Shown here: positions 3,711-31,312 of the stretch, one piece after another
How the letters are laid out: every line of letters starts with the position of its first letter
Position numbering within the stretch: the first letter of the stretch is position 1
Assembly: GCA_019752595.1 (NCBI GenBank)
Contig: JAIELV010000001.1
Span: 248,486-312,485, forward strand
Direction of reading: 5' to 3'
Source: Patescibacteria group bacterium
GTDB lineage: Bacteria > Patescibacteriota > Minisyncoccia > Phycocordibacterales > Phycocordibacteraceae
Length of the DNA stretch: 64,000 bases
The notes under the pieces: generated by a model
Told to the model about the DNA's origin: nothing
Seen by the model: the letters and a program-made list of their open reading frames with translations, nothing else
Databases searched by the model: none
Made by a program: the position numbers and the translations under genes

Positions 3711-4097
3711 ATGAACACTCACGAAAGCATCGAAAGAAAAAAGAAGAGGCACTTCGGCGCTACGGTATTTTTGACAGCTTTTCTTTCGGCGTGCGTGCCA
3801 CAACCATCTACCCCAACCCCTTCTGAGGCGGGCACGACAAACACCTCGCGAGGAGGTGTACCAGGAAGTGTCGCTGAACTTCAGGCACGCTATGAGGCAG
3901 CTGCAGCGGCCGAAGAGTTATACATTCAATGTATGGAGCGTTACTTCCCTACGTATCGTGCTGATGTAGAGACATACGGTTCCGTGTTTACTGGCGACCC
4001 TTTGGACGACACACCACACCCCTCAGTGGAAGGATGCCGCGCAGAAAGAGATGCACGGAATACTGCTGCGCGCACTATTGGACTTCCACCGATATAG
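3711..4097 (+). CDS. hypothetical lipoprotein or secreted protein (128 aa)
   Basis: Signal peptide with a lipobox-like LSAC, followed by a Thr/Pro-rich linker. I recognise no family. Confidence 0.5.
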   Translation: MNTHESIERKKKRHFGATVFLTAFLSACVPQPSTPTPSEAGTTNTSRGGVPGSVAELQARYEAAAAAEELYIQCMERYFPTYRADVETYGSVFTGDPLDDTPHPSVEGCRAERDARNTAARTIGLPPI

Positions 4098-4113
4098 TTG
4101 ATCTTTACTATTT

Positions 4114-4344
4114 TTAAAGCAGAATAGTTACCTGATTGTTCGACACTTCAAGTACTCCGCCTGGAACTTCAAAGTTTTGCGTTCCTTCCTTTGTTCTTAT
4201 CGTTACAACTCCTGGGAGAACATTTGATACAAATGCCTCGTGATTTGGCATGACGGTAATTTCACCCGCGCCAGTTTGCACAGTAACTGAAAGCGCTTCG
4301 CCTGAGAAAACGTTTTCGTGAACTTTTGTTATTGCAACGCGCAT
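4114..4344 (-). CDS. atpC: F1 ATP synthase epsilon subunit
   Basis: A 76-aa beta-sandwich-only epsilon (MRVAITKVHENVFSGEALSVTVQTGAGEITVMPNHEAF). It is the last gene of the atp operon. Confidence 0.85.
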   Translation of the reverse strand: MRVAITKVHENVFSGEALSVTVQTGAGEITVMPNHEAFVSNVLPGVVTIRTKEGTQNFEVPGGVLEVSNNQVTILL

Positions 4345-4363: not shown

Positions 4364-5734
<1,371 letters not shown>

Positions 5735-15040: not shown

Positions 15041-15111
15041 CGGGGCGTAGTATACCGGTAGTACATACGCTTCGGGTGCGTAGAGACCGAGTTCGATTCT
15101 CGGCGCCCCGA
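15041..15111 (+). tRNA. tRNA-Pro (anticodon CGG)
   Basis: Cloverleaf: acceptor CGGGGCG/CGCCCCG, anticodon stem TACGC/GCGTA, loop TTCGGGT (U33, G37), T-arm CCGAG-TTCGATT-CTCGG, discriminator A, no encoded CCA. Confidence 0.75.
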
Positions 15112-15231
15112 CTAAGGACTCCGCGAGAAATTCGGTTCGTAAAGTTCTTAGACAGATTTCGGGCCGTAAGTAAACTTTCGGCCCGTTCACTCGGACGGCA
15201 TGAAAATAAATTTTCGCGCCGCTCCTCGTTC

Positions 15232-15302
15232 CGGGCCGTAGTATACCGGTAGTACGCATGCATGGGGTGCATGTAGATCGGGTTCGATTCCCGACGGCCC
15301 GA
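15232..15302 (+). tRNA. tRNA-Pro (anticodon GGG)
   Basis: Acceptor CGGGCCG/CGGCCCG, anticodon loop ATGGGGT, T-loop TTCGATT. It is a paralog of the first tRNA-Pro and shares its D-arm. Confidence 0.75.
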
Positions 15303-15316
15303 CCCAGACGTCATTC

Positions 15317-15388
15317 GCTCTCATAGCTCAATGGATAGAGTGTATCCCTCCGAAGGATGAGATGCAGGTTCGATTCCTGCTGAGAGCA
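15317..15388 (+). tRNA. tRNA-Arg (anticodon CCG)
   Basis: Acceptor GCTCTCA/TGAGAGC, D-arm TAGCTCAATGGATAGAGT, anticodon loop CTCCGAA, T-arm GCAGG-TTCGATT-CCTGC. Confidence 0.8.
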
Positions 15389-22433: not shown

Positions 22434-22506
22434 TGGACCCTATCGGATTCGAACCGATGACCTCCTCATTGCAAATGAGGCGCTCTACCAACTAAGCTAA
22501 GGGCCC
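22434..22506 (-). tRNA. tRNA-Ala (anticodon UGC), with the G3:U70 identity pair
   Basis: Reverse complement gives a 73-nt cloverleaf: acceptor GGGCCCT/AGGGTCC with G3:U70, anticodon loop TTTGCAA, T-loop TTCGAAT. Confidence 0.85.
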
Positions 22507-23922: not shown

Positions 23923-25152
23923 CTACATCCTTTTCCTCAGTGCCCTGCGATGCCGATTAATTGCAAATCGGTGCGCTTCAGCATTTGCTAAAAGTATCGA
24001 TGATTCATGCACATTTCTCACTGTAGGCGCACCCAAGATATTTTTTGGCTTATGGCGTTCGTCTTTCACCACAGAAACAACCTCCGCGTCCCCCATTCCA
24101 GCAAGTTTTAAAAAGGCTTTCGCGTGCTTTAAATGCGTTGCCCCGCCGTCAATTACTACTACCTGCGGATACTGCCATTCACGATGTTTAGCTCTACGCT
24201 CAATCACTTCAGAAAGTGCGGCAATATCATCTCCCGCTTTCGCCTTGCGTATCGTAAACGTTCTGTATTCTTTTGATTCAAGTTCGCCATCAATAACAAC
24301 AGTCATAACCCCCCGAGTTGCATCACCACGTATATGGGCTATGTCGTATGCCTCAATCCTGAAAGATGCCGTCTCAGGAGTTCGGTACTCTTCTTTGATG
24401 AGCGTGACATCACGTATGTGCTCAAGCGCGAACACTTGGCGCTTCAGAATCTCAGCCTCTTCAAACCTTTCACCTTTTGCCGCGTGTGCCATTGCACGCT
24501 TCAATGACTGTACGAGAGAGCGTTTTTTGCCATCGAAAAGTTCACACACGTATTTCACTGTTTTGACGTATGCGTTTTCGTCCATGTCGGACGGATACAA
24601 TCCTATTGATTGATTGAATGTTACATGTTTCGCCTGTGCGGGAGTGAGAGAGGAAGTTATAGGAAACGGAGTATCGAAAAATGGGAATATTTTCCTTACT
24701 ATTTTTAATGCTTCGCGTAATTGAGCGGCGCTCAGGAACGGCCCAAAAAGTTTTTTAATTTTTGATGGGGGGAATGTTGCGGAGAGTTCCCGTTCTCTGA
24801 CTACCAGGAAACGCGGGTAGCGCTCTTTGGTTACCACCAAATATGCAAAACTTTTGTTGTCCTTTTGGTCGGTGTTTCCAGGGGGAAGAAGTTTTTTGAT
24901 GAGTTTTGCTTCAAGAATAAGCGCCTCTAACACGGAGTCGGTTTCTTCTACTGAAACAGAAAACGCATCACGAACGACTTTTTCAATCAGCGGACTCCGC
25001 ACGTCAGCAATGTCATTCGCAAAATAACTTTTTATCCTATCTCGAAGTGACGTGGCTTTGCCGACATAGAGCGCCTTCCCTTCTTCGGTTTTAAACTGAT
25101 ATACACCAGGAGCGTCAGGAACTTCTTTCCAATTAATATCGGCTTTCTTCAT
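23923..25152 (-). CDS. uvrC: UvrC-like excinuclease, short form (GIY-YIG, UVR and RNaseH-like endonuclease domains, no C-terminal HhH2)
   Basis: GIY-YIG GVYQFKTEEGKALYVGKATSLRDR, UVR motif ERFEEAEILKRQVFALE, endonuclease EAYDIAHIRGDATRGVMTVV. Ends at 409 aa. Confidence 0.75.
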   Translation of the reverse strand: MKKADINWKEVPDAPGVYQFKTEEGKALYVGKATSLRDRIKSYFANDIADVRSPLIEKVVRDAFSVSVEETDSVLEALILEAKLIKKLLPPGNTDQKDNKSFAYLVVTKERYPRFLVVRERELSATFPPSKIKKLFGPFLSAAQLREALKIVRKIFPFFDTPFPITSSLTPAQAKHVTFNQSIGLYPSDMDENAYVKTVKYVCELFDGKKRSLVQSLKRAMAHAAKGERFEEAEILKRQVFALEHIRDVTLIKEEYRTPETASFRIEAYDIAHIRGDATRGVMTVVIDGELESKEYRTFTIRKAKAGDDIAALSEVIERRAKHREWQYPQVVVIDGGATHLKHAKAFLKLAGMGDAEVVSVVKDERHKPKNILGAPTVRNVHESSILLANAEAHRFAINRHRRALRKRM

Positions 25153-25203: not shown

Positions 25204-26622
25204 TTATATTTCTTCGAACGTTGGCAATATTTTGATAGTAGCGGAGCGAGTGACAGGTAAACCTCCAAGATCGGTACATGAAAGCCTATACGTTACTTCG
25301 CTGTTGATAGCGCTCGTTGTCTTTGTTCCTGACGCTCCCGAAAGTGTCCATGAATCACCGTTTCCTGAAAGTGTGCACGAACCCGCCTGCACATCGACAA
25401 CGCTCCAGGTAAGAACCGTGGTCGTTCCTGGACGCACTGAGCGCGCAGTAGGCACAAGTGTCAGTTGTGCGTCAGCCGATGATTCGCTGTCATCAGCAAG
25501 AGAGCTACACTGCGGATCAAAACCTGCTCCAATGCCATAATCTTCAAAAGTATCACCGTCGTTGTCGATGCCGTCTTCGCACTCTTTCGGATTGTACTCA
25601 TCATTGTCAGAAGAGCTGGTGCATCCGCGATCGCCAGGAGGAACGGGATAATCGAGCTTGCCGTCACCGTCGTTGTCGATGCCGTCTTCACATTGTGCTG
25701 GATTTGCTTCGCTAGTATCGGCAAGCGATACACAACCAGAATCGTTGTTGACACCAAAACCAAAGTCTATTTTTGTATCTCCGTCATTGTCATTCCCATC
25801 AGAACATGCGGGATTTGCAGGATCGGTTTCATTATCGTCGGATGCGTTAATACAACCTGGGTCGGGATTACCACCACCAAAGTCTACTTTCCCGTCTCCG
25901 TCGTTGTCGACACTGTCTGCACATTGCGCAACGGTAGATGTTGTCTCGGAATCGTCCTGCGCGTTTATACAACCTGGATCTCCTCCAGAAAAATCAGTTA
26001 GACCGTCGCTGTCGTTGTCGATGCCGTCCGCGCATTGCGCAGGTGTTTCTCGACAGGCAACGCCAGAGCCAACAACGCCGTACGTAGGACCCTTGAACGA
26101 AAGCCAGCCGACAGTAGAGGTGTCAGCATCTGAACCGCCTCCCCATGCGTATCCTTCCCACGAACATCCAACCGCTTTTACCTGGTGCCCAGTTCCTGCA
26201 AGATGGAGCCACCCGCCCCACCCACCGATTTCTTGCGATGCTCCAGCACCCGCAATCGCGCGTGCCCATCCAGATGCTAAACCTGTTGTTTTATTAAAAC
26301 GCGCTTCGCATGGAGAGGTAGGGCAACCCGCAAGATCTGCAGAATTAAAAGATACCCAGCCAGCGTTTGAAGACCATGCGTAGCCTGACATTAAGCCACT
26401 CGTGTCAACTTTTACTCCGTAGTTTGTGGAGGCGCACGATCCTGCGGTGGTGCAGTTCATCGAAACCCACCCAATTGTTGAAGACCAGCCGTATCCTGAG
26501 AGATTATCTGTTGATGCTGCACGCACCATATGCACCGCGCCCCACACCGAAACAGCGAACAACGCGAAAAGAAAAAGTCCGAGGAGAAAACGGCCACGTG
26601 CTATTTGAAAAATATTTTGCAT
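25204..26622 (-). CDS. secreted repeat protein: N-terminal G(Y/W)AWSxxxGW(V/L)SF repeats followed by at least six Cys/Asp-rich C-x-DG-x-DND-x-DG calcium-binding-like repeats
   Basis: Signal peptide, then repeats such as CADGIDNDSDG, CADSVDNDGDGKVD, CSDGNDNDGDTKID, CEDGIDNDGDGKLD and CEDGIDNDGDTFED. These resemble thrombospondin-type-3 or MopE-like metal-binding motifs. The coding DNA shows matching tandem periodicity. Confidence 0.6.
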   Translation of the reverse strand: MQNIFQIARGRFLLGLFLFALFAVSVWGAVHMVRAASTDNLSGYGWSSTIGWVSMNCTTAGSCASTNYGVKVDTSGLMSGYAWSSNAGWVSFNSADLAGCPTSPCEARFNKTTGLASGWARAIAGAGASQEIGGWGGWLHLAGTGHQVKAVGCSWEGYAWGGGSDADTSTVGWLSFKGPTYGVVGSGVACRETPAQCADGIDNDSDGLTDFSGGDPGCINAQDDSETTSTVAQCADSVDNDGDGKVDFGGGNPDPGCINASDDNETDPANPACSDGNDNDGDTKIDFGFGVNNDSGCVSLADTSEANPAQCEDGIDNDGDGKLDYPVPPGDRGCTSSSDNDEYNPKECEDGIDNDGDTFEDYGIGAGFDPQCSSLADDSESSADAQLTLVPTARSVRPGTTTVLTWSVVDVQAGSCTLSGNGDSWTLSGASGTKTTSAINSEVTYRLSCTDLGGLPVTRSATIKILPTFEEI

Positions 26623-26631
26623 ATACCTGAT

Positions 26632-27234
26632 TTATTGCATTAAAACGCTGCCACCATACCCTGATTCGTAGGCTCCTTCGTACCCTGCTTGATAATTCCC
26701 TTGAGAATAGGCAGGGGCAAAAGGACTTGTTCTCCATATTGTTCCTGGAGAAACGACAACAGAACCTGTGCATGAAAGTCTGGAATAGGTACAGTATTTC
26801 CAACCCGCACAGTCAGCGCTCGAGACCCACGAGCAGTGTGCCCAACTCATAGGAATCCACCCTGCGCTTATTTCTGCTGCTGAAAGAACACATCCGACGC
26901 CAACAGGAGTTCTATCCCCAGGATCTTGATTCTGTTTCACCATGATGTTCAAGGAGCATGTTGCAGGTTGTGCAATCCACGACCACTCAGTAATACAACT
27001 CTCACCAATACAAAAACCGTCTGTTGCTCCTATCGCGTCGGCCCAAAAACTGCCTTTCTTCTCTTGGTACGTGAGACTCGAATCAATAAGTGCTGGTGGA
27101 TTCCCTCCAGGAGGAAGCGCGAGAGAGTTTGAATAGTTTGCAGCGAACGCCGAGGTACCCAAAACCAAAAGGCTCAAAAAAACAGTGAGTGTGTTTCTCA
27201 GAATGCTTCCAGTTTTTTGTGAAGTCTGTTGCAT
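26632..27234 (-). CDS. secreted Cys-rich protein, paralog 1 of a tandem triplet
   Basis: Sec signal peptide with an AFA|AN cleavage site. Shared blocks: FWADAIGATDGFCIGESCI, GVGC, AGW, SW-HC-WVS-DC, YC-Y-LSCTGSV. C-terminal Gly/Tyr-rich tail. Confidence 0.55.
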   Translation of the reverse strand: MQQTSQKTGSILRNTLTVFLSLLVLGTSAFAANYSNSLALPPGGNPPALIDSSLTYQEKKGSFWADAIGATDGFCIGESCITEWSWIAQPATCSLNIMVKQNQDPGDRTPVGVGCVLSAAEISAGWIPMSWAHCSWVSSADCAGWKYCTYSRLSCTGSVVVSPGTIWRTSPFAPAYSQGNYQAGYEGAYESGYGGSVLMQ

Positions 27235-27240
27235 AGGTTT

Positions 27241-27756
27241 TTATCGAGTTACCGTGCCAGGTGCAATGGTGACAGACCCCCCACACACCAAGCGTGTAAA
27301 GGAACAGTATTGAGGACCAGAACAGTCACGACTACGAACGCTTGTACAGTGGTCCCAGCTTCCAACAATCCATCCTGCAGCTGCATCAGCACTCGAAACT
27401 GTGCATCCGATACCTACCGTGTAACTGCTTTGCGGATCTTGGTTTTGGATTTTCTTTGTTTCAAGGTGACACGGTGAGCCTGTGGAACCTGCGGGCCAGG
27501 AGTTTATACAACTCTCACCAATACAATATCCATCGTTTGAACCTATTGAATCAGCCCAAAAATCTCCTGTTTTTGTTTGGTCAGTACTGCCTACGTTCAA
27601 CGGTGCATTCACGTTGCCCACAGGTGGGTTTGAGCCAGGTTCGGAAAAATTCGCCGCAGAAACGATACCAAACACCAACAAAAAACCGAATAGAGCAACA
27701 ACTACGTCTTTCACGAGTGAGACTGCGGCAACTTTGATGGTGTTATTTTGAATCAT
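27241..27756 (-). CDS. secreted Cys-rich protein, paralog 2 (start re-assigned to the internal ATG at 27756)
   Basis: MIQNNTIKVAAVSLV, then signal peptide VSA|ANFSEPGSNPPVGNV and FWADSIGSNDGYCIGESCI. The longer ORF runs antisense into paralog 3's Gly-rich tail, which is an artefact. Confidence 0.55.
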   Translation of the reverse strand: MIQNNTIKVAAVSLVKDVVVALFGFLLVFGIVSAANFSEPGSNPPVGNVNAPLNVGSTDQTKTGDFWADSIGSNDGYCIGESCINSWPAGSTGSPCHLETKKIQNQDPQSSYTVGIGCTVSSADAAAGWIVGSWDHCTSVRSRDCSGPQYCSFTRLVCGGSVTIAPGTVTR

Positions 27757-27760
27757 ATGT

Positions 27761-28357
27761 TTATTGAGTAGTGTCGGAGAATCCACCACCACCGTCTCCT
27801 CCTCCGCCACCGCCACCGCCACCATAAGAACCTTGCGAGTACTGTGGTACGTAATTCTCCTGTGTCACAATTCCTGGCTCAATAACCACATTGCCCGTGC
27901 ATGAAACCTGCTGGTATACGCAGTAATATGGCCACGCGCAGTCTGAACTTCGGACCGACGTGCAGTAGTCCCAACTCACCAATGTCCATCCTGCGGCGGT
28001 TTCTTGTGCGGAAGGAATACATCCGACACCCATTGCGCCAGGGTTATGGTCTTCACGAATCATAGTGTTTAGCTGACATGAAGAACCTGCCGCGCCTGCA
28101 GGCCATGCGGTAATACAACTTGCGCCGATACAGAAGCCGTCTGTTGCGCCTATTGAATCAGCCCAAAAATCTCCTGTCTTTTCCTGGTATTCAACGCCCG
28201 CATTCACTGGTGGTGCCACATTCCCCGCGGGTGGGTTGGTCGAGGGTTCAGTCATATTTGCCGCATACGCCACACCCGCAATGACGGATGCACAGACAAG
28301 AACTCCGAGTACTAGACGAAGACTTTCTCTAAAAAAACTTTTTAAAAATGCCGACAT
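27761..28357 (-). CDS. secreted Cys-rich protein, paralog 3
   Basis: Signal AYA|ANMTEPSTNPPAGNV and FWADSIGATDGFCIGASCI. C-terminal poly-Gly tail GGGGGGGGGDGGGG. Confidence 0.55.
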   Translation of the reverse strand: MSAFLKSFFRESLRLVLGVLVCASVIAGVAYAANMTEPSTNPPAGNVAPPVNAGVEYQEKTGDFWADSIGATDGFCIGASCITAWPAGAAGSSCQLNTMIREDHNPGAMGVGCIPSAQETAAGWTLVSWDYCTSVRSSDCAWPYYCVYQQVSCTGNVVIEPGIVTQENYVPQYSQGSYGGGGGGGGGDGGGGFSDTTQ

Positions 28358-28371
28358 GCAAAACGTGCAGT

Positions 28372-28632
28372 CTATTGACCTAACTCATTAAGAAGACTTG
28401 CTCTGTCTTGCGACGTAAGTCCATCTGAATCAGGATTATCGGGGAGCGTATCGAGAATGGCCTGCGCCTCCTGCGGTTCTATTACCTTCTCTTCCAAACT
28501 TTTCGTATACAAACCCTGGTATCCGATAAAACACAAAAGCACGATAACCACGAAGAACAGAAAAGCGAGGAAGGCTTTTTGCGAATCAGGAGAATACTGG
28601 GATAAGTTCATACGTACATGATACCCCCGCAC
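28372..28632 (-). CDS. hypothetical small single-pass membrane protein
   Basis: Hydrophobic helix FLAFLFFVVIVLLCFIGY followed by an acidic tail. It is the first ORF of the secreted-protein cluster. Confidence 0.35.
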   Translation of the reverse strand: MRGYHVRMNLSQYSPDSQKAFLAFLFFVVIVLLCFIGYQGLYTKSLEEKVIEPQEAQAILDTLPDNPDSDGLTSQDRASLLNELGQ

Positions 28633-28699: not shown

Positions 28700-31312
28700 C
28701 TACAACATCTTCTTCAAATACTGCCCTGTATAGGACCCTTTTGTTCGCGCTACTTCCTCAGGGGTTCCTGTGGCAACAACATTGCCGCCGTGTACACCAC
28801 CATCAGGTCCGACATCTATCACGTAATCTGCGCATTTAATTAAATCCATGTTGTGTTCAATCACCACAACCGTATTACCTTTGTCGACTAAGGTCTGAAG
28901 AATTTCTATTAATTTTTTCACGTCTTCGTAATGCAGACCGATGGTGGGCTCATCCAAAAGATATATTGTTTTTTCTGTGTGTCTTCTATAGAGTTCTGAT
29001 GATATCTTCACGCGTTGTGCTTCTCCGCCTGAGAGTGTCGTTGCAGACTGCCCCAGTTCCAAATACCCCAGCCCCACATCCATCAGTGATTGAAGGCGGT
29101 CCGAAATTGCAGGAATATCTTTAAAGAAATCTAACGATTCCTCCACGGTCATCCGCAGTACATCGTGTATAGTCTTTTTTTTGTAGGTGACCTCGAGCGT
29201 TTCTTTCATAAAGCGCATTCCGTTACAGACATCGCACGTGACATACACAGTCGGCAAAAAGTGCATTTCAACTGCCACCGTGCCATTACCCTGGCATGCT
29301 TCACAACGTCCGCCTTTAACGTTGAAGGAGAAACGCCCGCCTTTCCATCCCCGTGCGCGCGCTTCGGGTGTCGCCGCAAACAAATCACGGATGTGTCCAA
29401 AAGCTCCTGTATAGGTAGCAGGATTCGAGCGCGGTGTTCTGCCGATTGGTGATTGATCTATCAACACAACGCGAGAGAGATACTCGGAACCAGAAAAGCT
29501 GGCACAGTTATAAATCTTCGTTGTGCGGTAATTTCTTTCAAGACGCGCACGCAAATTTTTGTGTAAAATTTCGTACATAAACGAAGATTTTCCCGAACCT
29601 GAAACGCCCGTGATGATATTCAATCTCCCCAAAGGCACATCAACATCCATATTTTTAATATTGAAAATGTTTCCCTGACGGACCTTGAGCGCGCCTTTTT
29701 GCTCTTCGCGACGCGATTTTGGAATTTCGATTTTTTTCTCGCCTCGTAAATACGAAAGTGTTACAGAATTTGTGTCATTTTTCTTTGCGGTCAGCAGATT
29801 CTCCAACCATCCTGCTGCAATAATGTTTCCGCCATGTACACCCGCGCCAGGACCGATATCAACTATGAAGTCAGAAGCATATATAGTGTCTTCGTCATGC
29901 TCGACCACAATGATGGTATTTCCCAAATCACGAAGACGTAAGAGCGTTTGAATTAAACGGTCGTTGTCTTTTTGGTGAAGGCCGATAGTAGGCTCATCAA
30001 GGACGTACAACGCTCCCACCAAACCACTTCCCAGCTGCGACGCAAGCCTGATTCGTTGTGCTTCTCCTCCTGAAAGGGTGTTTGCAGTTCTGTCTAACGT
30101 CAGATACCCAATCCCTACGTTAATCATGAATTGCAGCCGAGCCAAGATTTCTTTGACAACAACCTTTGAAATCTCTTCCTGTTTTTTGCTCAAACTAAGG
30201 CTTTCAATAAAATCTTTTGCATCGATAATCGAAAGTCTTGTTAAATCCACAACGTTTTTGCCAAGCTTCTTTTCAGTTGAACCAAGGTACACGCGGAGCG
30301 CTTCGGGACGTAAGCGCATTCCCTTACACACGGGGCATTCATCGAGATTGAAAAAGCCTACGGTCCCCAACCCATGGCACTCGGGACACGCGCCGTAGGG
30401 GCTGTTGAACGAAAAGAGGCGTGGTTCAACCTCAGGAAATGATGAGCCGTCGACGGGGCATATAAATTTTGCCGAAAGAATGCGCGGTTCGCCTTTCGGA
30501 TTTACAATTTTTACCAACCCATTTGATTCCTTGAGTGCGAGCTCCACCGCTTCCGATAAACGCTCTTTTGCATCCGTTTTTGATTTTTCGAGTTCAGAAA
30601 CAAAAATTTCGTCTACGACAATATCAATATCGTGCACTTTGGTTTTCTCAAGATTGATGCGCTCCCTGAGTGAATGTTCTTTTACGTCGACAATTACTTT
30701 TTCAAACCCTTTACCCAATAGGTCATACAACATCTGGTAGTACTCACCTTTTCTCCCGAGAACAACGGGCGCCAAAATGCGTATCTTCAAATCATTGTAG
30801 GCGACACCCATAACACTCTTTGCGGTCTGTTTGATGTCGACCTCCTCTATCGTACGCAAAATAATTTTTAGAATTTCTTCTTTAGAAAGTTTTTGAATCG
30901 GTACGTCGTGATTCAAGCAGTAGGGCTGACCTACGCGCGCATACAAAATACGCATGTAGTCATAAATCTCAGTGATGGTGGCGACCGTCGAACGCGGGTT
31001 ATTGGAACGTGATTTCTGGTCGATAGAAATTGCAGGCGACAAACCAGTGATTTCCTCAACATCTGGCTTCGACATCTGATTTAAAAACTGCCGCGCATAC
31101 GCGGAGAGAGATTCAACATAGCGACGCTGACCTTCGGCAAAAATGGTATCAAACGCCAATGATGATTTCCCTGAGCCTGAAAGGCCCGTAAATACCACCA
31201 TCTTGTTTCTCGGCATTTCTACCGTAACGTTCTTGAGGTTGTGTGTTTTTGCTCCTTTAACAACAATTTTTCCTGCGTCAAAGTTTTGTTCGTCTTTTTT
31301 TACCATATGCAA
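28700..31312 (-). CDS. uvrA: excinuclease ABC subunit A
   Basis: Two ABC ATPase modules ([15 protein letters not shown] and [15 protein letters not shown]), Zn-finger cysteines, and LSGGEAQR signatures. Confidence 0.95.

Follow-up and report, generated by a model that had tools for sequence, protein, structure and literature searches.

Patescibacteria are believed, for the most part, to live attached to other microbes, and to our knowledge the molecules by which they recognise and attach to them are largely unknown apart from the type IV pili of Saccharibacteria. Several described systems come close to the locus presented here: phage-derived trimeric S74 fibres encoded in bacterial chromosomes, proteins with the acidic double-disulfide repeat of NCBIfam model NF033662, MSCRAMM adhesins such as SdrC, and proteins with Hint domains. 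Among the last of these, the warthog and groundhog families of C. elegans comprise N-terminal domains with and without a Hint domain (PMC1636047), and the features of A-type bacterial intein-like (BIL) domains are listed in PMC7765530, which summarises Amitai et al. 2003 and Dassa et al. 2004. The locus lies in a stretch of 64,000 nucleotides (nt) from a Patescibacteria group bacterium of the family Phycocordibacteraceae (the window; positions 248,486 to 312,485 of contig JAIELV010000001.1, which is 831 kb long). It comprises genes for a small membrane protein, three paralogues termed A, B and C, and a partner protein of 472 amino acids (aa), and these five genes look like one exported-protein cassette. 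The reading proposed for this cassette, with about an even chance of being right, is that it produces a disulfide-stabilised assembly of fibre or adhesin type outside the cell, and that this is one lineage's own version of a two-part system widespread in Patescibacteria.

The paralogues begin, over the first ~55 residues of the mature protein, with a shared module that consists of the pattern (A/W)-x-x-x-P...PPxGNVxAPxNxGxxxQxKxG followed by a disulfide hairpin, (F/Y)CIGxSCIxxWP. A hidden Markov model (HMM) of the module matches A, B and C with expect values (E) of 1e-27 to 1e-30, and the module spans residues 39-95 in B and 32-88 in C. A word-indexed protein search with the 60-aa module returned short fragments only. 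The same module is present at the mature N-terminus in 56 other loci, nearly all of them from Patescibacteria, in lineages that include Paceibacteria, Kaiserbacteria, Adlerbacteria, Nomurabacteria, Wolfebacteria, Giovannonibacteria and Moranbacteria. Pfam domains in 48 module proteins are Peptidase_S74 (seven), Shufflon_N (three), Gp34_trimer, Gp10_C and Collagen (two each) and Hint (one); the fibre-type domains lie C-terminal to the module in the proteins examined, and Shufflon_N is central in the one case examined. In other module proteins, the head is small, Cys-rich and unrelated, or its sequence resembles a phage tail collar. Given that the module is shared with S74, Gp34 and collagen proteins and is followed by such varied heads, it probably marks exported proteins of fibre or adhesin type with swappable distal domains.

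By eye, the C-terminal halves of the module proteins at L023:3908-4513 and L054:32-664 (…SQIPSHTHS…GGGQAHENRPPYVAVLYC) are reminiscent of tail-collar or microcystin-dependent-protein domains, which Pfam does not list for them. The hairpin (F/Y)CIGxSCIxxWP recurs every ~150 residues in very long fibre-like open reading frames (ORFs), and is found alone in Acidobacteriota, Halobacteriovorax and Gammaproteobacteria metagenome-assembled genomes and in four IMG/VR viral contigs (loci L040, L057, L062 and L086, and viral contigs L088-L091). It appears to be a general 'node' motif of fibres.

The occurrence of the module with the phage domains S74, Gp34 and Gp10, together with the hairpin in those four viral contigs, would also be expected if the cassette consisted of domesticated or remnant phage tail-fibre genes, as a prophage fragment or a phage receptor decoy. 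Such an origin is highly improbable. Neither the paralogues nor the 472-aa protein match a PHROG, and no phage fibre family of PHROG or Pfam was found in any window protein, the fibre domains being confined to further proteins with the module. The cassette lies between uvrA and uvrC with no phage genes on either side, and its chromosomal synteny is stable across the clade. Every protein bears a Sec-type signal by a heuristic call, which virion proteins lack, and the full module occurs almost exclusively on Patescibacterial chromosomes.

Module genes recurrently lie beside a gene for the GYAWS-repeat domain that occupies the N-terminal part of the 472-aa protein. Module loci were picked with a pattern for the hairpin only, blind to the GYAWS domain, and with flanks of at most 4 kb on each side. 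A GYAWS-domain gene was identified by HMM in the flank of 32 of the 56 loci, on the same strand and within 1 kb in 29 and within 300 nt in 21, and was situated downstream of the module gene in 19 loci and upstream in 13. The window contains a single GYAWS gene, that of the cassette, and at this density, which is a background taken from one window, chance alone would give about two adjacencies. The type of head makes no difference to the pairing.

The order uvrA, small membrane protein gene, A, B, C, 472-aa gene and uvrC is also present in L001, L002 and L015-L018. In L032 (1-8171) and L061 (1-7421), with uvrA ~70% identical, uvrA and uvrC are adjacent and are followed by a triplet of module genes and a GYAWS protein gene; compared with these loci, the cassette in the clade of the window has another location, namely as an insertion between uvrA and uvrC. 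The members of the L032/L061 triplets belong to the same core family as A, B and C; the first lacks a tail, the second carries a single acidic repeat and the third ends in a Gly/Ser tail. Both in member 2 of these triplets and in the protein P0260, a core with six Cys is fused to a single acidic Cys repeat like those of the 472-aa protein. Tight packing of unrelated genes is usual in compact genomes, and the five genes could be neighbours without shared function that happen to encode exported proteins. This is quite unlikely given same-strand adjacency of module and GYAWS genes within 1 kb at 29 of 56 independent loci, the survival of this adjacency through rearrangement relative to uvrA and uvrC, and the core-repeat fusions, which together argue that the paralogues and the 472-aa protein are one functional unit.

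Module genes form tandem triplets in L020, L050 and L034 as well, where the C-terminal regions are unlike the paralogue core; the heads of the L020 triplet differ among themselves, and L041 has three module genes at wider spacing. In a neighbour-joining tree (no support values), A, B and C group apart from members 1, 2 and 3 of L032/L061. An earlier reading of the window by sequence alone, hereafter the original prediction, had proposed a tandem duplication; a recent one is not supported, as the triplication predates the clade.

In paralogue A, a predicted signal peptide (residues 1-32, ...VAYA|AN) precedes the N-terminal module (~33-90), after which come the six-Cys core (~92-166) and a Gly-rich tail, GGGGGGGGGDGGGGFSDTTQ. 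Paralogue C has the same parts and a Tyr/Gly-rich tail, YSQGNYQAGYEGAYESGYGGSVLMQ, and B ends with ...PGTVTR and has no tail. B and C are 47-49% identical to A over their full length, and pairwise identities on trimmed columns are 47-54%, a similarity far beyond chance. Family HMMs match only the three paralogue ORFs in the window (E 1e-27 to 1e-43). Eight Cys (C76, C81, C94, C113, C132, C140, C146 and C153 in the numbering of A) are invariant or nearly so in an alignment with 24 further family members. The claims of the original prediction about these genes are confirmed in part: three tandem paralogues of about 170 to 200 aa are present (198, 171 and 200 aa), each with a signal peptide and AxA|AN site by heuristic call, and the shared motifs recur with small deviations, namely CIGASCI rather than CIGESCI in A, FWADAIG in C and GIGC in B. 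The variable Gly-rich tails that it described are found in A and C, whereas B stops right after its core.

All five products possess an N-terminal hydrophobic segment and would be exported by the Sec pathway. The signal-type N-termini of the paralogues, called heuristically, consist of a basic n-region, a hydrophobic core and the AxA|AN site. Candidate cleavage sites are AYA|AN, VSA|AN and AFA|AN in the paralogues and VRA|AS in the 472-aa protein, with small residues at -3 and -1, and the hydrophobic cores of the candidate signals have mean Kyte-Doolittle values of 2.1-3.1, with an uncleaved signal anchor as a further possibility. No class III (type IV pilin) signal was found in the paralogues, in which AxA|AN is followed by a polar Pro-rich segment and G-F-T-L-I-E is absent. 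The mature paralogues would comprise ~135-165 residues.

The paralogues match no family in Pfam, NCBIfam, PHROGs or PADLOC, no PDB chain by sequence and no PDB or BFVD entry by fold. The original prediction was thus right that the family cannot be placed in any characterised group, and no identity with pilins or a known bacteriocin emerged. The family is also rare, with 28 sequences in a profile search of 5.8 billion clustered proteins and ~7 clusters (50% identity) bearing the N-domain among the top matches of an exhaustive HMMER search of 1.84 billion representatives; the profile for the latter retained Hint columns, and its 33,264 matches are mostly Hint proteins. The structure prediction that had been proposed as a check yielded a model of A that suggests a small beta-rich domain with one short helix, albeit at only moderate confidence (mean predicted local distance difference test score, pLDDT, of 60; near 80 over core residues 90-160).

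The orthologues of the paralogues form one separate group for each of A, B and C, and every related genome keeps all three; the mature cores are 71-88% identical between orthologues; P0009 is nearly identical to B across the mature region. The number of nonsynonymous substitutions per site (dN) between the window and L001 is 0.035 for uvrA, 0.085 for ddl, 0.115 for uvrC, 0.123 for B, 0.154 for the 472-aa protein, 0.169 for A and 0.235 for C; the dN of the paralogues is similar to that of neighbouring uvrC. Synonymous sites are saturated in almost all genome pairs (synonymous substitutions per site, dS, >1.3 or undefined), and the ratio ω of dN to dS is a rough bound only; wherever dS can be estimated, ω is ~0.05-0.15. 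Signal peptides diverge faster than mature cores. The cassette is under purifying selection, and at this resolution (orthologue pairs, saturated dS) there is no sign of diversifying selection; the diversifying pressure envisaged in the original prediction is not supported, given these ω values, the conserved mature cores and the retention of A, B and C as orthologous groups.

The 472-aa protein is composed, from its N-terminus, of a predicted signal sequence, the GYAWS domain, a series of acidic Cys repeats, an immunoglobulin (Ig)-like domain and a PTFEEI motif, and its AlphaFold model has a mean pLDDT of 72.6 (30 homologues). Full-length orthologues (68-79% identity) are present only in the same small clade. 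The GYAWS repeats already noted in the original prediction form four units of ~38 aa (SGYAWS..GW.SFN...YGV), two canonical and two degenerate, with conserved Cys, and the domain is modelled as all-beta with a pLDDT of 85-92 over most of the region. It matches no Pfam family, and a Beta-prism_lec match (E 0.013-0.075) was rejected, being absent from six homologous domains.

The acidic repeats number exactly five by both regular expression and NCBIfam, not the 'at least six' counted earlier. They follow the pattern C-x-D-G-x-D-N-D-x-D-G-x-x-D...C with a period of 37-39 aa and two Cys each (197/218, 234/257, 273/297, 311/334 and 348/372, the first of each pair being the start of the repeat), and Asp and Glu make up 26% of the region, which is modelled at low confidence (pLDDT ~55). 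NF033662 matches five stretches and scores 70.2 bits (cutoff 41; E 8.6e-20); over 1,100 proteins share this repeat, with Myxococcota and Patescibacteria contributing many of them. The resemblance to thrombospondin type 3 or MopE motifs that had been suggested is not supported, since the repeat is that of NF033662 and neither Pfam TSP_3 nor Cu-binding_MopE matches the 472-aa protein at E <= 1. The DNDxDGxxD loop has the form of a DxDxDG calcium-binding loop, and the five repeats are probably of a Ca-binding type. A match of the 472-aa protein to phi92 gp138 in the PDB (E 0.004) spans the low-complexity acidic region and was judged to be compositional.

The Ig-like domain is modelled with a pLDDT above 90, and its best Foldseek matches in the PDB are Ig-like or MG domains (2p9r, 1rhf, titin; E 2e-3 to 1e-2, probability 1.0). 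In most homologues a motif P-x-F-x-E-(F/I) stands at the C-terminus or at most three residues from it; variants among homologues include ILPTFEEI, PKFQEIAP, IPNFTEF and LPGFQEF. As no transmembrane segment follows it, the motif is unlike a sortase or exosortase signal, and it may be a docking peptide.

With Ca-binding-type DxDxDG repeats and an Ig-like domain, both generally known to be common in envelope proteins, the 472-aa protein could also belong to a structural scaffold, associated with an S-layer or the wall, that lacks specific binding and in which the acidic repeats bind Ca2+ to stabilise the envelope. Conservation of the cassette next to housekeeping genes, purifying selection and the phylum-wide pairing of GYAWS and module genes would suit such a role. 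It is nevertheless unlikely, since elsewhere the module joins phage fibre domains of receptor-binding type and highly variable heads, which are typical of recognition proteins, and since the paralogue family is very rare (~28 sequences in 5.8 billion, in ~7 clusters at 50% identity).

Many orthologues of A and C are longer than the window proteins, at ~325 aa versus ~200 aa, because a Hint domain of ~131 aa follows the Gly-rich linker. Among A orthologues the domain lies between the Gly run and a short tail (P0008, P0010, P0013 and P0024), and among C orthologues it is C-terminal (P0004, P0006, P0007, P0020 and the L018 copy); it is absent from all B-type sequences recovered. Pfam PT-HINT is above its gathering threshold in three of the four orthologues tested (P0010, P0004 and P0024), scoring 49-50 bits in the first and last of these (cutoff 27.7). 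The nearest solved chains are a protein named 'intein C-terminal splicing domain' and the bacterial intein-like domain 2LWY (E 1.4e-5). The domain starts at GGG|CFSPETL and ends at VLVHN|, with V, I, A or K at +1 and 3-15 residues after the Asn, and contains Cys1, TxxH and a block that resembles the intein F-block, VYNLTTVPSHTYFA. On A, C or both, it would cut itself off at G|C.

The window itself has no Hint domain by Pfam, and tblastn with nine orthologue Hint domains gave only chance-level matches in it (best E 0.057), with no remnant. Neither A nor C therefore carries the domain in the window, whereas both carry it in L001 and in L015, L016 and L017 (the domain on C is seen in L016 and L017, as the L015 contig stops before it), only A in L002, and only C in L018 and L003 (the domain on C is seen in L018). 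All four combinations of presence and absence thus occur among genomes whose uvrA proteins are 88-96% identical to that of the window. In L016, the A and C genes share, with 100% identity, a block of 403 nt (3780-4182 and 5299-5701) that begins at the Gly codons and extends to the His of His-Asn. Their N-domains, by contrast, are just 49% identical, and the flanks of the block are unrelated at that offset, which indicates that the Hint module was copied, or underwent gene conversion, recently. The L017 contig ends 39 nt into the second copy of the block. Together, the pattern of presence and absence and the L016 block indicate that the Hint domain is a dispensable module that has been repeatedly gained, lost and converted, for which recombination in the flanking runs of GGN codons is a plausible route. 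Hint-less A alleles retain a short C-terminal tail, and the window genome has either lost both Hint domains or never had them.

Other arrangements of the Hint domain were also observed. The C-type protein at L018:5000-6190 (+) has a long Tyr-rich low-complexity linker (YYQSSYYAQSYYQSS...) between core and Hint, and only VKQ after His-Asn. P0162, a protein of 488 aa with a TadE-like N-terminus, has two tandem Hint domains of the type GGG|CF...VHN|K. Many top matches of the representative search have two to eight Hint copies in proteins of up to ~4,000 aa, and Gly-linked secreted proteins with multiple Hint domains seem to be common.

PT-HINT, which among Pfam models matches the orthologue Hint best, is a module of polymorphic toxins, and this Hint also resembles that of an ADP-ribosyltransferase toxin in the PDB. 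The small, exported, disulfide-rich proteins encoded in tandem beside a small membrane protein could accordingly be read as a secreted toxin or bacteriocin system, with the paralogues as diffusible effectors, the Hint domain as the means of their release and the small membrane protein as the immunity factor. In polymorphic toxins, however, Hint precedes a variable C-terminal toxin, whereas here just 3-15 residues follow His-Asn. No toxin, bacteriocin, immunity or defence model of Pfam, NCBIfam or PADLOC matches, the sole hit, Atracotoxin at E 0.82, being noise. The cassette occupies a fixed chromosomal site between housekeeping genes under purifying selection, and all three paralogues are retained in every genome. 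A toxin system, which would also leave the GYAWS pairing unexplained and in which a module common to fibre-type proteins would be out of place, is improbable.

The cassette occupies 28632..25204 on the (-) strand (Table 1), with five co-directional ORFs separated by intergenic gaps of 14, 4, 6 and 9 nt, the last of which lies between the stop codon of C and the 472-aa gene. No terminator-like site was found between the five genes, and, as originally proposed, they form one apparent operon; a consensus promoter scan of the cassette was no better than shuffled sequence. Upstream is uvrA (31312..28700, gap of 67 nt), and downstream is a uvrC-like gene (25152..23923, gap of 51 nt) followed by ddl. 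The mechanical ORF list gives B as 194 aa from an upstream ATG that overlaps A; the start backed by orthologues is the ATG at 27756, four bases past the A stop. A and C are identical to NCBI entries K2P56_01600 and K2P56_01590, respectively.

Table 1. Features of the cassette, in positions of the window
Feature	Position	Strand	Basis
Small membrane protein gene	28372..28632	(-)	ORF and hydropathy
Paralogue A, 198 aa	27761..28357	(-)	ORF, alignment
N-terminal module of paralogue A, ANMTEPSTNPPAGNVAPPVNAGVEYQEKTGDFWADSIGATDGFCIGASCITAWP	28088..28261	(-)	Module HMM
Paralogue B, 171 aa	27241..27756	(-)	ORF, start set by orthologues
Paralogue C, 200 aa	26632..27234	(-)	ORF, alignment
Predicted exported protein, 472 aa	25204..26622	(-)	ORF
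GYAWS-repeat domain of 472-aa protein, residues ~38-190	26053..26511	(-)	AF2 (AlphaFold) model, domain HMM
Five tandem acidic double-disulfide repeats of 472-aa protein	25483..26040	(-)	NCBIfam NF033662, regular expression
Ig-like beta-sandwich at C-terminus of 472-aa protein, residues ~385-465	25228..25470	(-)	AF2, Foldseek
P-T-F-E-E-I motif, extreme C-terminus of 472-aa protein	25207..25224	(-)	Homologue alignment

The first gene encodes a small single-pass membrane protein, as had been claimed; by hydropathy, it has a single transmembrane helix (LAFLFFVVIVLLCFI) between a short N-terminal segment and a C-terminal tail that is acidic. It is 86 aa long from a GTG start and 79 aa, the length of orthologues, from an internal ATG at 28611; orthologues of 79-89 aa (48-77% identity) hold the same position in L001, L002 and L015-L018. 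Weak family matches, including a holin-like PHROG (E 0.003), were driven by the transmembrane helix and were discarded. The protein is possibly an anchor or an assembly factor. Elsewhere in the window, three tRNA genes cluster at 15041-15388 (+) and one more lies at 22434-22506 (-), with no other Rfam family at gathering score in the 64 kb. Over 1-64000, the cumulative GC skew declines almost without interruption to -2.19, and the (-) strand carries nearly all long ORFs, which is consistent with a single replichore with strong gene-strand bias.

Toxin, envelope, phage and mere-adjacency explanations fit this evidence less well than an extracellular fibre- or adhesin-like assembly, and the surface or adhesin role suggested in the original prediction is the direction in which the new evidence points. 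Part one of the assembly would be the module proteins, here the short paralogues A, B and C, in each of which the module would serve as stalk or dock for a lineage-specific six-Cys 'head'. Part two would be the GYAWS beta-domain protein, here the 472-aa protein, in which the five acidic Cys repeats and the Ig-like domain are added. Contact between module and GYAWS domain, in docking or during assembly, is proposed, and the head would bind a target on a host cell or surface. A, B and C would co-assemble, most simply as a heterotrimer, an idea prompted by the module shared with trimeric fibre proteins (trimerisation, S74) and by the three kept copies.

Several points weigh against such an assembly. 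The heterotrimer is argued from gene number and analogy alone, and, unlike gene order, homology, domain content, co-occurrence and the Hint polymorphism, which are observed, the export, interaction, oligomeric state and adhesive role of the proteins are all inferred from sequence and context. No LPXTG or similar cell-anchoring motif is present. In 24 of the 56 module loci there is no GYAWS gene in the flank, though some of these contigs are short, and a single window supplied the estimate of how dense GYAWS genes are in the background. The model of the paralogue is only moderate and has no structural neighbour, which leaves the six-Cys 'head' with no fold assignment. The tree suggests that the triplication arose twice or was homogenised; either way, three distinct copies are maintained.

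A wider proposal, which is tentative and on balance rather unlikely as a whole, is a phylum-wide surface-appendage system in which fibres with swappable heads plug into, or are assembled by, the GYAWS partner. The fibres would be heterotrimers in several lineages, and some subunits would be matured by Hint in a Hedgehog-like manner, in a reaction that could ligate the Gly-rich C-terminus to an acceptor in the envelope. Such a system would be a main determinant of host recognition and attachment in ultra-small episymbionts. The acidic repeat and the Hint domain are of kinds already known; no curated model or paper was found for the six-Cys core, the N-terminal module, the GYAWS domain, the module-GYAWS pairing or the recurrent triplets, and no paper was found on these motifs or on Hint domains in Patescibacteria. 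There is a moderate chance that the system is distinct and phylum-wide. In that case, the gene pair would supply concrete candidates for host recognition, a fibre-like protein with a swappable head and its GYAWS partner, and could help to predict host range from genomes. The Hint polymorphism, in turn, offers a natural experiment on the role of bacterial intein-like domains in secreted proteins, with four combinations in near-identical contexts and, in L016, a Hint-sized block that is fully shared by otherwise divergent paralogues. It addresses a question that dates from the first description of these domains.

Compared with known systems, the paralogues are closest to the phage-derived trimeric S74 fibres of bacterial chromosomes in sharing the module with which S74, Gp34, Gp10_C and collagen proteins begin. 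They differ in being short, with no shaft, no S74 domain, no PHROG match and a novel six-Cys end, and, where an S74 fibre is a homotrimer from one gene, there are here three distinct paralogues with Sec-type signals. The 472-aa protein resembles NF033662 proteins in its five above-cutoff repeats, each with two Cys and a DNDxDGxxD loop; the repeats of that family are of a DxDxDG, Ca-binding type similar to thrombospondin type 3. The family is defined only as a repeat, which in the 472-aa protein is combined with GYAWS and Ig-like domains and a PxFxE(F/I) C-terminus. Its NCBI product name is 'MSCRAMM family adhesin SdrC', and it shares with SdrC an Asp-rich repetitive sequence and a plausible adhesin role. 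The name is probably a compositional (Asp-rich) artefact, as the protein has no LPXTG, no Ser-Asp repeats and no Pfam match to an A-domain or SdrD B-repeat. The Hint domains of the orthologues agree with A-type BIL domains in Cys1 after Gly, TxxH, an F-block-like sequence, a VLVHN end and a non-nucleophilic +1 residue, and, as in BIL hosts, they sit in predicted secreted, non-conserved proteins; they differ from BIL domains and inteins in a C-flank of just 3-15 residues, for which splicing would have no obvious purpose. In their layout of signal peptide, N-domain and Hint, and in the occurrence of the N-domains with no Hint as well, the A and C orthologues are like Hedgehog and Hog proteins, from which they differ in that their Hint domains have no sterol-recognition region and in that the window genes have dispensed with, or never possessed, any Hint at all.

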